DNA of 64,000 bases from a virus. The notes under the pieces are model-generated. The model worked only from the letters and a program-made list of their open reading frames with translations. It had not been told where the DNA came from and searched no databases. Shown here in pieces: positions 4,798 to 46,397 of this stretch (position 1 is the stretch's first letter; each line of letters opens with the position of its first letter). A program made the translations under genes and the position numbers. The stretch is from positions 37,704 through 101,703 of IMG/VR virus record IMGVR_UViG_3300045988_114440; one strand, 5' to 3'.

Positions 4798-4870
4798 GGT
4801 CCTGTAGCTTAGTGGTGAAAGCAGGCGGCTCATAACCGCAAGATCGTGGGTTCAAATCCCTCTGGGACCA
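4798..4870 (+). tRNA. tRNA-Met/fMet (anticodon CAT; Ile-lysidine not excluded)
   Basis: Cloverleaf by eye: acceptor ggtcctg/tgggacc, D-stem gctt/aagc, anticodon loop cuCAUaa, T-loop ttcaaat; CCA not encoded. Confidence 0.7.
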
Positions 4871-4871
4871 C

Positions 4872-4942
4872 TGTCCAATGGTGTAGTGGTAGCACAACAG
4901 ATTTTGGTTCTGTTAGCGGAGGTTCGAATCCTCCTTGGATAA
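4872..4942 (+). tRNA. tRNA-Gln (anticodon TTG)
   Basis: Acceptor tgtccaa/ttggata, anticodon stem acaga/tctgt with loop ttTTGgt, T-arm ggagg-ttcgaat-cctcc; begins 1 nt after the previous tRNA. Confidence 0.7.
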
Positions 4943-5012
4943 CGGTACATATTTTGTGTAAAGTGTTAATTATCTAAGTGTTTGTGGTGTGTGAACATAG
5001 CAAACATTAAAT

Positions 5013-5084
5013 GGCCCATTAGTTTAACGGATAAAACCCTTGAGTCCTAATCAAAAGTTGCCTGTTCGATTCAGGCATGGGCTA
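5013..5084 (+). tRNA. tRNA-Arg (anticodon CCT)
   Basis: Acceptor ggcccat/atgggct, D-stem gttt/aaac, anticodon loop gtCCTaa, T-arm gcctg-ttcgatt-caggc. Confidence 0.6.
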
Positions 5085-5087
5085 CAT

Positions 5088-5159
5088 GGCTTGTTGGATG
5101 AGTGGTTTAGTCAGGGATCTGCAAAATCTCGTAGGGCGGTTCGATCCCGCCACAAGCCT
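5088..5159 (+). tRNA. tRNA-Cys (anticodon GCA)
   Basis: Perfect 7-bp acceptor ggcttgt/acaagcc, anticodon stem gggat/atctc with loop ctGCAaa, T-arm ggcgg-ttcgatc-ccgcc. Confidence 0.65.
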
Positions 5160-5177
5160 CTAAAAAAAAGTAAGACA

Positions 5178-6167: not shown

Positions 6168-6824
6168 TTATTTCATTACTTTCCTTACCAACTTAGAAAC
6201 AGCTTGAGTGATAGTCCACCTGATGTTTGCATTAACGTTGATAGTCTGAGGAGTACCGTTTGCATCCAAGTTAATTACCTCCTTGTCTATTTCCAAGAAC
6301 GGATCACTTGCTGTCTGGGTAATAACCGTATTAGCCGTCTGACCTCCGGCGGCCGTCACCTTAAGAGTATTTACCAGATCGTTTACATCAGTGTTCGCAG
6401 CAATATCGGAGAATACGATACTGAAAGCAAAGGCTCCTGTTGCACCAGGGTCGTCGGCGATAACAGCGCCGTTGTTGGTAGCCTTACCTGCCGCCTGATA
6501 GGAGGTAGGTATTTCCAACGTCAGAGGATGAGTTTCGTCCGGAGTTAAGGAGAACGTTAATTTAGTTGAGTTACTTGTACCGTTGATTGTTACAGTACCA
6601 CCTCCTTTCCCTACAGATGCAGTAGGATCTATTTTTACGAACTCAGCTACCGGAGATTGGTTGATGGTAGCACTTTTCTTAACACCCCCTGATTCGGCAC
6701 CAAATTCTACTTGTTGCGTGCGTTGTACACGACCTTCGTATTTTTCACCTGATACGGTAACCGCCTGATCACCATCACCTGATCCCGGATTGAAGGTTAC
6801 AAAACCTATTTTCAATTCTGCCAT
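6168..6824 (-). CDS. hypothetical T/N/G/A-rich beta-type protein encoded opposite to the surrounding genes
   Basis: 218-aa ORF on the - strand with an AT-rich upstream region; protein-like composition; converges on the 5867-6136 gene. Confidence 0.55.
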   Translation of the reverse strand: MAELKIGFVTFNPGSGDGDQAVTVSGEKYEGRVQRTQQVEFGAESGGVKKSATINQSPVAEFVKIDPTASVGKGGGTVTINGTSNSTKLTFSLTPDETHPLTLEIPTSYQAAGKATNNGAVIADDPGATGAFAFSIVFSDIAANTDVNDLVNTLKVTAAGGQTANTVITQTASDPFLEIDKEVINLDANGTPQTINVNANIRWTITQAVSKLVRKVMK

Positions 6825-7069
6825 GACATAAATAATTTTGTAGTTAATTGATATCTTGACAAATATAGGTTTATTATACGTAAGTCTTATTATTCATATT
6901 TATAAATTAAAAGCTATATTTGACCAAAATAAGATAATTATGAGAAGAAGATTTTTTAACAAAATAAGGGGGGGGGGAGCTCCCTACTAATAATTTTATA
7001 GTTTTTGATAAATCAGTACAAAATCCTGCCAATATAACAATAAGCGAAAACAGTGATTTTTTAAATCGT

Positions 7070-8056
7070 TTGATTACCAGTGGCTTCTATAGAGTTCTTT
7101 GCAAGAGCGCTATGGGAGGAGGAGAGGTTTTTGTATGTAGATTAAAAGATAGCGACAGCAACCTGTATCTTGATGGCAGTCCGGCTGTTCTTACCGGACA
7201 AGAAGGTGATGTGATGGTCGTTTTCCTTGAATTTTGGTATAAGTGGTATAAGGTGGATGACAATAGATTCCTTTATCATTTTGCTGATCATAATATCGAT
7301 GGCACTTACATTCATGTTCCGAAATCTCTTGTTGGAGCATATAAAGGATATGTGTCTTTAAATAAACTATATAGCTGGAGTGATGTTAAGCCTTCAACAA
7401 GCATATCATTTAATGATTTTAGAAGATATGCAAAAGCGCGTGGCACCGGGTATCAGATGATAGATTTTCAACAACATTGCGTGATTGCTATGATGTTGTA
7501 TGCTAAGTATAAAACACGCGACCTTCAAGGCGTATTGGGAGCCGGTGGTGCAACCTATGATCCGACTACAACAACTGGAAGCAGCAACGCAACCGGTGGT
7601 GCGGATACTAAAAACGAAAGTTCAAAGTACGTTTGCGGCTTAGGTTTGGAAGGGGTTTTTGGTGGCATTAACGAATGGGTGGAAGGCGTAGAAATTAACA
7701 ACCATGTTTGGACAATCACCGACCAGGACGGTTCTACACGAAAAGTAAATGCTGGAAAATCAAGCGGATATATAACCAATGTCGCAGCCGAAAATGGGCC
7801 TTTTTTCGATATGGTGCCAACAAATGTCGGCGGTAGCGATTCCACGCATTATTCAGATTACTATAGTCGGACATCGAACAATTCCATTGTTTTAGCGCGC
7901 TCTTGTGACAGTTCGAGTTCGTTTGGCGGTGTGGCGTTTGCGTATGCGTCTTACGTTGTTTCGAGCACGCATTCGTACTCCGGTTCTCGTCTCGCTTTCC
8001 GTGGAACCATATCCGAAGTGAGTATGGAGCAGTTTAAAAAATTACCTGCATTATAA
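7070..8056 (+). CDS. hypothetical protein with Gly/Ser/Thr-rich low-complexity segments
   Basis: Track ORF begins at TTG 7070 (internal ATG possible); segments GAGGATYDPTTTTGSSNATGGADTKNESS and SSSSFGGVAFAYASYVVSS. Confidence 0.45.
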   Translation: MITSGFYRVLCKSAMGGGEVFVCRLKDSDSNLYLDGSPAVLTGQEGDVMVVFLEFWYKWYKVDDNRFLYHFADHNIDGTYIHVPKSLVGAYKGYVSLNKLYSWSDVKPSTSISFNDFRRYAKARGTGYQMIDFQQHCVIAMMLYAKYKTRDLQGVLGAGGATYDPTTTTGSSNATGGADTKNESSKYVCGLGLEGVFGGINEWVEGVEINNHVWTITDQDGSTRKVNAGKSSGYITNVAAENGPFFDMVPTNVGGSDSTHYSDYYSRTSNNSIVLARSCDSSSSFGGVAFAYASYVVSSTHSYSGSRLAFRGTISEVSMEQFKKLPAL

Positions 8057-45381: not shown

Positions 45382-46397
45382 TGGTCCCGGAAACACATTT
45401 GCTATATAAGGAGTTTAATGGTGTGAAACGTCTTGCCATATCTTATTCCCAGATAGATACGTTTCTTACTTGTCCAATGAAATGGTATAAGACTTACGTA
45501 GAGGGCAAAAGGTCTACGGAAAAACAAGAAGCTACATCTTATGGTACGGTTATCCATAAGACACTGGAATACTTCTTTAAAAACGGAAGACAGCCTTCTG
45601 GTAAAGACCTTGGAGAAGCGATAAGTTACTATGCTTACCAAGAAGACATACCTTGGCAATCACCGGAAAATATGATGATGGCCATGAAGCAATCTGGGGA
45701 ACTTCTTGCTTGGATTGTGGATCTGTTCAAAAAAGACGGCAATAGGTTTATGATAACTGATAGTGATCTTAATCCCTGCGAGAAACTTATCAGACACGGC
45801 GCTATAGTTGGAGTCGAAGAAGATTTTGTGCTGCCATACCGTCTTCCTAAGCCTGTTGATATAAATGGTGACGTTCATACCCATGTGTACATAGTAGGAT
45901 CGGTAGACCTTCATCTGGCTATAAAAAGCAAGAACGTAGTTCACCATTATGTCATAGATTGGAAATCAGGGAATAAGGTTTTTGATTCTAAGAAGTTGGA
46001 AACGAATTTACAGCATCCTATATATTCGTTTTACATCTATAGAAAATATGGTGGAGTTCTGCCAGATATGAACATCTATTTCTTTACCAGAACCAGGCAG
46101 TACCAAAAGGTTAAGGTGGATGAGGAACGTAAAACAAAATCTATAGAGATGCTAAATGACACTTTGTCTAAAATGTATGATTTTGAAGATAATAGTGTAA
46201 AAACATTTCAGGCATACATCCAGGGAGCAGAAGGAGCCAGGTATAGCAAGCGGCGTGCCACCCTAAGCCAGCCTGTTCCACAAAACAAGCTACCCTGCCC
46301 GTCAGCACTGTGTTACTATTGTGACTTTGGATTACATAACAAAAACGAATGCCCTTTCTCTTCGGATTGGGATCCGTCTAAAAAGATAAAACGATGA
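45378..46397 (+). CDS. Cas4-like / RecB-family PD-(D/E)XK exonuclease with Cys cluster
   Basis: N-terminal ISYSQIDTFLTCPMKWYKTYVEG; VIDWKSG...LQHPIYSFYIY core; C-terminal CPSALCYYCDF...ECPF cysteines. Confidence 0.65.
   Translation: MMVPETHLLYKEFNGVKRLAISYSQIDTFLTCPMKWYKTYVEGKRSTEKQEATSYGTVIHKTLEYFFKNGRQPSGKDLGEAISYYAYQEDIPWQSPENMMMAMKQSGELLAWIVDLFKKDGNRFMITDSDLNPCEKLIRHGAIVGVEEDFVLPYRLPKPVDINGDVHTHVYIVGSVDLHLAIKSKNVVHHYVIDWKSGNKVFDSKKLETNLQHPIYSFYIYRKYGGVLPDMNIYFFTRTRQYQKVKVDEERKTKSIEMLNDTLSKMYDFEDNSVKTFQAYIQGAEGARYSKRRATLSQPVPQNKLPCPSALCYYCDFGLHNKNECPFSSDWDPSKKIKR

Follow-up and report, generated by a model that had tools for sequence, protein, structure and literature searches.

The 64,000-nucleotide stretch of viral DNA analysed here (IMG/VR record IMGVR_UViG_3300045988_114440, positions 37,704 to 101,703; hereafter the window, whose own numbering is used throughout) carries a run of ten G residues beside a divergently oriented minus-strand gene, and we asked whether this run acts as a genetic switch and, if so, of which gene. 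The first-pass annotation had placed the run in a 245-nt intergenic region shared by the minus-strand gene and its plus-strand neighbour, from where a slippage-prone tract could phase-vary either of them, and had regarded the minus-strand gene as a moron-like island with an autonomous promoter. The analyses reported below indicated that the tract lies inside the plus-strand gene, here called the poly-G gene, and that it is probably a slippage-driven on/off switch in an accessory lectin gene of the type targeted by diversity-generating retroelements (DGRs), carried by an epsilon crAss-like phage and in the OFF state in the window.

Direct reading of the sequence, together with scripts, located the G10 homopolymer at 6968-6977, where it occupies codons 10-13 of the plus-strand gene. 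It is the sole G/C run longer than 7 nt in the window, the next-longest being of 7 nt; the G+C content of the window is 37%, and the number of G runs of at least 10 nt expected by chance in 64 kb is 0.013-0.022. Translation from the ATG at 6940 reads through the tract as MRRRFFNKIRGGGAPY and meets the TAA at 6988-6990, giving a peptide of 16 residues; the 5' end of the gene in its OFF state thus covers 6940-6990 of the plus strand. From the first G (6968) onward, frame 2 stays open until a TAA at 8054-8056. Tracts of G9 or G12 join both parts into one open reading frame (ORF) of 371 or 372 aa, while G10 and G11 are out of frame and end at 6988 or shortly after.

A database search using the protein of the G9 version retrieved 186 relatives. 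Since the full-length homologs (370-372 aa, 100% coverage) start with MRRRFFNKIGGG[YNDG]LPTDNF, the ATG at 6940 is the true start of the poly-G gene, and the G residues code for a glycine linker; the N-terminal MRRRFFNKI is likewise kept in the homologs. Because the tract is within the gene, the true divergent intergenic region is an AT-rich stretch of 115 nt (6825-6939) and not the 245 nt first annotated. Many of the database entries are shorter, at 352 aa (first residues MVFDKSV) or 314 aa (MGGGEVF), because gene callers truncated out-of-frame alleles.

The G10 run and the palindrome GGGAGCTCCC (6975-6984) were both found as previously described. The palindrome arises simply because AG and then the Leu-Pro codons CTC CCT come after the G run. 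It is private to the window allele and is not kept in relatives, in which Gn is followed by TAATCTCCC, CGGTCTCCC, CGATCTCCC or TATTTACCT. A pattern scan of IMG/VR with the exact tract context of the window gave no match, the allele AAG-G10-AGCTCCC being unique; relatives of the poly-G gene were collected by protein search and not by the exact tract pattern.

Tract lengths were compared in 59 related genes from IMG/VR, and contigs of gut metagenomes in ENA were scanned separately. The length ranged from 4 to 11 G in the IMG/VR genes and also in the ENA contigs, of which 10 were ON (in frame) and 34 off, ON alleles at n+3 (G11) included. After removal of duplicates the two sets gave 75 distinct epsilon crAss-like contigs, 25 of them ON and 50 OFF. 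A check for length heterogeneity of the tract in the population had been proposed with the first-pass annotation, and the 4-11 G seen among these 75 contigs bear it out.

The state of an allele depends on its flanks. Among the IMG/VR genes with flanks AATA-Gn-TATTTACC, the lengths n=6 (1 genome) and n=9 (2 genomes) were ON while n=7 (4 genomes), n=8 (15), n=10 (2) and n=11 (1) were off; one further genome with n=9 was off and had T7 in place of the upstream T6. With the flank Gn-CGGTCTCC, n=8 (5 genomes) and n=11 were ON while n=6, 7 and 9 were off. The neighbouring T6 and A4 runs were altered in just one genome each of about 59. The T6 to T7 change (L030, IMGVR_UViG_3300029552_000014) lies within the first 9 codons of the gene and stands beside a G9 that is out of frame; an A4 to A5 change, also within the first 9 codons, was seen in L008, whose G8 is in frame. 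In the standard TATTTACC allele, for comparison, G9 is in frame and G8 out of frame, and the A5 of L008 may be a compensating shift.

Identical 927-nt bodies were shared by 33 genome pairs, all with identical variable regions (VRs), and in 45% of these pairs the tract length was unequal. Clusters with at most two differences contained G6, G10 and G11 together, or G8 and G9 together. Since genomes with identical bodies differ in tract length while the T6 and A4 runs stay stable, the G tract is by far the fastest-changing site in the poly-G gene. The population-wide pattern of lengths cannot be sequencing noise.

The body of the gene was free of stops in 57 of the 59 genes, and its pairwise ratio of nonsynonymous to synonymous divergence (dN/dS) was 0.26 at a dS of 0.29. 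Since a neutral ORF of 1.1 kb at dS ~0.29 should hold several stops, the poly-G gene has been under purifying selection, though two thirds of the sampled genomes are OFF. The locus shows three features of a homopolymer phase-variable gene: a tract of at least about 7 nt inside an ORF, length polymorphism covering both frames, and an intact body under purifying selection.

The sole close phage in GenBank is crAssE-Sib (OR575929, 151 kb, human gut), at 94-96% identity, which has been assigned to the epsilon crAss-like phages and to a proposed genus, Epsilonunovirus (Viruses 2024;16:513, PMC11054128). The window is part of the genome of an epsilon crAss-like gut phage closely related to crAssE-Sib. 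Comparison by blastn and alignment revealed that window 6876-8056, a plus-strand segment of 1181 bp in which the poly-G gene and its upstream region lie, has no counterpart in crAssE-Sib, which carries 57 unrelated bp there instead; the breakpoints are clean, at 6875/6876 and 8056/8057. To extend the comparison, 80 related IMG/VR loci (L082-L161) were fetched with the 218-aa protein encoded by the minus-strand gene. The poly-G gene occupied the same slot in 23 of them, the slot was empty (~185 bp) in 55, and it was otherwise different in 2 or 3. The minus-strand gene was present and syntenic in 80 of 80 loci and in crAssE-Sib, a conservation that the first-pass annotation had itself named as counting against its island. 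Since the 218-aa gene is found in all 80 loci and the poly-G gene in 23, the accessory, moron-like unit is the plus-strand poly-G gene and not the minus-strand gene. The slot between the minus-strand gene and the neighbouring 136-aa gene looks like a hot spot of cargo exchange. In L120 (IMGVR_UViG_3300045988_110030) a partial poly-G gene is accompanied by a larger insertion, with a gap of 2310 bp, and L156 and L160 are without the 136-aa neighbour gene.

The protein of the poly-G gene gave no match in Pfam or NCBIfam. Search of PHROGs matched it to the C-terminal part of the 'tail protein' family phrog_5302 (E 6e-32) and to the end of a giant-protein family, and in small temperate Bacteroides phages its counterpart forms the C-terminal part of a tail protein. 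An AlphaFold2 model built from 32 homologs was confident (predicted local distance difference test, pLDDT, 94.2). The gene body in frame 2 (6968-8056, plus strand) encodes an N-terminal beta domain followed by a C-type-lectin (FGE-like) fold with the variable region at the C-terminus, the arrangement of DGR variable proteins, and the product shows ~31% identity (tblastn) to the DGR variable protein of Hankyphage. In bacterial relatives the same domain stands behind fimbrillin-like lipoprotein N-termini (PF13149). The product is thus a 371-aa stand-alone module of the DGR-target type, with a putative role in ligand binding.

A VR-like region, homologous to the template repeats (TRs) of related DGR phages, was identified at 7889-7993 of the plus strand, with a G+C content of 53% versus 41% for the gene. 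Within it the codons of CDSSSSFGGVAFAYASYVVSSTHSYS (7904-7981) are hypervariable: the residues ARS...GSRLAFRG differ extensively in relatives whose overall identity is 80-93%, with three to four bases seen at codon positions 1 and 2 and a nearly fixed position 3. This codon pattern has the appearance of a signature of adenine-specific mutagenesis of AAY codons. The VR had a dN of 0.52 versus a dS of 0.31.

More distant homologs were found in contigs of 18-35 kb (L058, L062-L077, L206-L214) that carry a canonical DGR cassette in the order VR, TR, reverse transcriptase (RT), and in which the homologous domain ends a 700-aa tail protein located after a baseplate-like gene. In these small phages the TR lies ~270 nt downstream of the VR, the mismatches between them are all at TR adenines, and the RT is 48% identical to that of Hankyphage. 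Compared with TRs of the L072/L058 type, the window VR fits their adenines, agreeing at nearly all non-adenine positions with few non-A differences. According to the small-phage TRs the VR-TR homology ends at CGTCTC, and the initial TR scan with the VR 3' end had reached beyond it. No second copy of the VR that could serve as a cognate TR was detected within the 64-kb window, and two scans of IMG/VR with TR-core patterns gave matches only in small DGR phages and none in epsilon contigs. Similarly, tblastn with the Hankyphage RT matched neither the window nor the sequences flanking the epsilon loci, while strong matches were obtained beside the TR in the small phages. The genus has its own DGR and RT, ~40 kb away and outside the window; this DGR, as known from crAssE-Sib, has a different target and an unrelated TR, and on account of that TR it was rejected as a possible origin of the VR.

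The epsilon phages share 6-7 families of VR alleles, each common to many genomes; the VR is therefore not rewritten in every sample. Alignment with the L058-type small-phage gene revealed a mosaic, nt ~600-1000 being 83-100% identical (60-nt windows) and the 5' half 30-65%. The mosaic stretch corresponds to window ~7540-7940 in comparison with L058/L210 (IMGVR_UViG_3300014922_000092) and other small-phage loci. Such a mosaic indicates recent recombination between the epsilon crAss-like phage and unrelated phages. The simplest reading would be an orphan VR whose alleles were imported by recombination from DGR-active phages; trans-retrohoming is a less likely source of the alleles. A two-layered diversification, in which the poly-G switch gates expression and the DGRs of small temperate Bacteroides phages supply VR alleles by recombination or trans-retrohoming, is a tentative proposal to which we attach little probability. 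The small-phage TR core was also found in Bacteroides ilei Marseille-P3208 (NZ_LT635801.1, two sites), in a Bacteroides metagenome-assembled genome (MAG) and in a Parabacteroides MAG (L264-L267), which suggests that these bacteria carry the small phages as prophages and hints at a host shared by the epsilon crAss-like phages and the small DGR phages. If true, the two-layered proposal would favour Bacteroides or Parabacteroides as hosts of the uncultured epsilon crAss-like phages.

The proposed switch would operate through slipped-strand mispairing during replication of the phage DNA, which would alter the length of the tract. In-frame lengths would yield the full protein (ON), and at all other lengths translation would end after 15-20 codons (OFF). 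The G10 of the window is an OFF allele, in which one G less or two more would restore the gene. A phage population would in this way always hold subpopulations with and without the auxiliary binding protein, and bet-hedging on adsorption or host range would be a likely consequence of such a mixture. From the first-pass proposal that a slippage-prone tract phase-varies a flanking gene, the variable length and the switching of a gene are retained, while the means differ, the frame switch being inside the plus-strand gene and not in promoter spacing.

Several points weigh against such a switch. Its reversibility and rate are read from differences between assemblies, not from changes within one lineage, and the IMG/VR and ENA sets overlap, 16 of the 91 records being identical duplicates whose removal leaves the 75 distinct contigs. 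The ON fraction, 25 of 75, is the 1/3 expected for a frame-random tract length, so there is no sign of selection on the ON/OFF state itself. The gene is dispensable, being missing from ~70% of relatives; it is set among replication genes and oriented with them; its association with the virion is putative; and the VR lacks a cognate TR or RT within the window, and none was found in the epsilon contigs of IMG/VR.

Among the other explanations, ongoing non-adaptive decay comes first, the tract being a mutational hot spot and the out-of-frame alleles early pseudogenes of a dispensable cargo gene. The two thirds of records that are OFF match the neutral 2:1 expectation exactly, the gene is missing in 55 of the 80 relatives as well as in crAssE-Sib, the orphan VR stands without TR or RT, two bodies (L053 and L054) contain stops, and the copy in L120 is partial. 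However, 57 of 59 bodies are intact with a dN/dS of 0.26, at a divergence where a neutral ORF should have gathered several stops. Moreover, the tract length outpaces any point substitution in the gene, and lineages would therefore regain the ON state often enough for selection to act. The tract is also long and uninterrupted in most alleles, although working short interrupted 'locked-ON' alleles (G5-C-G) exist. For these reasons decay was judged an unlikely account of the locus.

A sequencing or assembly error would mean that the true tract is G9 (or G12), that the gene is intact and that the population variation reflects homopolymer miscalling. Homopolymers of 8-11 nt are error-prone on several platforms, and a one-base mistake would account for the window allele, a possibility that had been raised at the outset. 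The lengths, however, range from 4 to 11 and do not lie within one base of a single value, and one out-of-frame length can recur in many independent assemblies: 15 IMG/VR and 6 ENA contigs have G8 with TATTTACC as the flank. ON alleles occur at n and n+3, and the neighbouring T6 and A4 runs are stable. The window allele taken alone may carry a one-base error, but the population pattern is no artefact, and error as a general explanation is improbable.

We consider it very improbable that the G10 allele is expressed through recoding, either because transcription slips on the G run or because ribosomes shift by +1 there, and so is not truly OFF. A +1 shift at the tract would link both frames, and RNA polymerase can slip at long homopolymers. 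Programmed sites, by contrast, fix one configuration, whereas no out-of-frame length is fixed here, all three frames occur among the relatives and many of these are directly in frame; further, no stimulatory structure was found and the palindrome is not kept in relatives. Slippage could at most yield leaky expression of the G10 allele.

The shared-promoter version, with the tract phase-varying transcription of the 218-aa or the plus-strand gene through promoter spacing and the minus-strand gene as the moron, draws on the AT-rich divergent region and its TAnnTTTG motifs on both strands but has almost nothing left in its favour, as the tract is downstream of the conserved ATG at 6940, codes for Gly in the homologs and lies at least 144 nt upstream of the minus-strand ATG, and as the minus-strand gene is core and most relatives are without the tract yet keep this gene with its proximal upstream region (aligned up to 6875), which makes an effect of the tract on this gene unlikely.

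The 115-nt intergenic region is a candidate promoter region for both genes. The motif TATATTTG occurs there on both strands: at 6867-6860 (minus), 35 nt ahead of the minus-strand start codon at 6824 and in agreement with the TATATTTG-type motif first noted, and at 6915-6922 (plus), 17 nt ahead of the ATG at 6940. Over the window, TAnnTTTG (the Bacteroidetes -7 motif) occurs 41 times on the plus strand versus 31 +/- 5 expected, a slight excess, and it is not enriched upstream of ORFs (4 observed versus ~2.6 expected). Because of this lack of enrichment before ORFs the promoters are only putative, including the autonomous promoter that was proposed for the minus-strand gene from such a motif. 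An inverted repeat after the poly-G gene was no better than shuffled sequence (z -0.11), so no significant hairpin or terminator was recognised there.

The minus-strand ORF itself (6168-6824, 218 aa, rich in T, N and G) was confirmed by direct reading. Its homolog in crAssE-Sib (OR575929 5004-5660, WOZ57225) is the only opposite-strand coding sequence in the replication-gene block, as had been noted for the gene of the window. The orientation is that of phage structural genes, and late expression of the gene is plausible from its position on that strand. Search of 1.84 billion cluster representatives retrieved 447 relatives of the protein, mostly of ~200 aa. Some are giant proteins in which a module of ~70 residues is repeated 8-12 times, these repeats matching Pfam BACON and viral BACON, and the modules of the 218-aa protein align to them. 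The 218-aa protein itself is below Pfam thresholds; within its family, 29 of 42 remote members match Pfam BACON and 12 of 42 BACON_2. The family profile also matched the N-terminal BACON domain of BoGH5A (3ZMR residues 42-92, E 8e-4), while a PDB search with a shallow profile of the 218-aa protein gave no match, the deeper profile being required. An AlphaFold2 model, with secondary structure of mostly strands, had a pLDDT of 32, too low for use. The product is thus best described as a core protein, putatively of divergent BACON-like type (Ig-like repeat), that lies outside the switch, and the beta-rich or Ig-like character guessed earlier is supported indirectly by its BACON-like family. The label 'glycosyl hydrolase family 5 / xyloglucanase' on its homolog in GenBank is an over-annotation, because the sole detectable similarity is to the non-catalytic BACON domain and the protein is short and without a catalytic domain.

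At 90% identity, database sequences of the 218-aa protein fall into 2156 clusters, the membership of one of them reaching 13,055. The polymorphic sites, ~25 surface-like positions, are scattered over the protein. These observations suggest that the phage lineage is very abundant and that its 218-aa protein is highly microdiverse. The possibility of a DGR-type hot spot was rejected because the substitutions are scattered.

Just upstream of the studied region a cluster of four tRNA genes (4798-5160; Met-CAT, Gln-TTG, Arg-CCT, Cys-GCA) is conserved in crAssE-Sib. Of the other long homopolymers of the window (T9 and A9), a single one could be anchored for comparison with crAssE-Sib, and nothing notable was seen. 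An A9 run at 40492-40500 is located at the stop codon of ORF 39360-40493, in a DnaB-like helicase region. This ORF overlaps ORF 40355-41110 by 139 nt, and crAssE-Sib has A8T at this place with the same overlapping annotation.

Contingency loci with homopolymeric tracts are known from bacteria such as Neisseria, Haemophilus and Campylobacter. Like them, the poly-G gene has a simple-sequence repeat near the 5' end of an otherwise intact ORF, is ON at lengths three nucleotides apart, and is of a surface or ligand-binding type; unlike them, it is carried by a phage genome of virulent type and not by a bacterial chromosome. The closest precedent comes from Campylobacter phages, in whose receptor-binding protein genes hypermutable poly-G tracts are reported (Sorensen et al., Cell Rep 2021;35:109214, as cited in PMC12823448). 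In the account given where that work is cited, as in the present locus, the poly-G run lies inside the coding region of a receptor-binding-type phage gene and its length sets the frame, with ON and OFF subpopulations. Measured against the same account, the present phage belongs to the epsilon group of Crassvirales and has a host of another phylum, its gene product has a DGR-type C-type-lectin fold, the gene is accessory and placed in the replication module with a putative virion location, and the switching is deduced from metagenome assemblies.

The fold also invited comparison with the DGR variable proteins TaqVP (5VF4), TvpA (2Y3C), Mtd (1YU0) and that of Hankyphage (BK010646), all with the C-type-lectin fold. 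Unlike these, the poly-G gene has no TR or RT beside it, elsewhere in the 64 kb or among the searched epsilon contigs; its VR alleles fall into few shared families and are not unique per sample; and the sequence resembling an IMH (initiation of mutagenic homing) site at the 3' end is diverged and has no significant hairpin. The DGR cassette of crAssE-Sib comes from the same phage genus and also targets a TaqVP-like C-type-lectin protein (PMC11054128). Its target is, however, another gene, located at 43837-45894 of OR575929 and encoding a putative tail fibre of 686 aa; the VR and TR of that system are unrelated, and crAssE-Sib is without the poly-G gene. The paper describing it (PMC11054128) makes no mention of 'homopolymer' or 'frameshift', and no such switch was reported for crAss-like phages or for a DGR-type target in the literature searched. 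As regards the minus-strand gene, family members and repeats match BACON and viral BACON as in the BACON proteins of crAss-like phages and Bacteroidota (PF13004, PF19190; BoGH5A, 3ZMR), while the window protein differs from these in being below Pfam thresholds, short, stand-alone and without a catalytic domain.

For annotation, the consequence is that gene callers split or shorten the poly-G gene, as in the 352- and 314-aa entries, and that the adjoining BACON gene wrongly bears a glycoside hydrolase label. The mosaic relation to the DGR targets of temperate Bacteroides phages offers a lead on the host of the uncultured epsilon group. The crAss-like phages are among the most abundant viruses of the human gut and persist beside hosts with phase-variable surfaces. 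If the reading proposed here is true, a slippage switch acting on an auxiliary binding protein of lectin type would mirror, on the side of the phage, the phase variation of the host.

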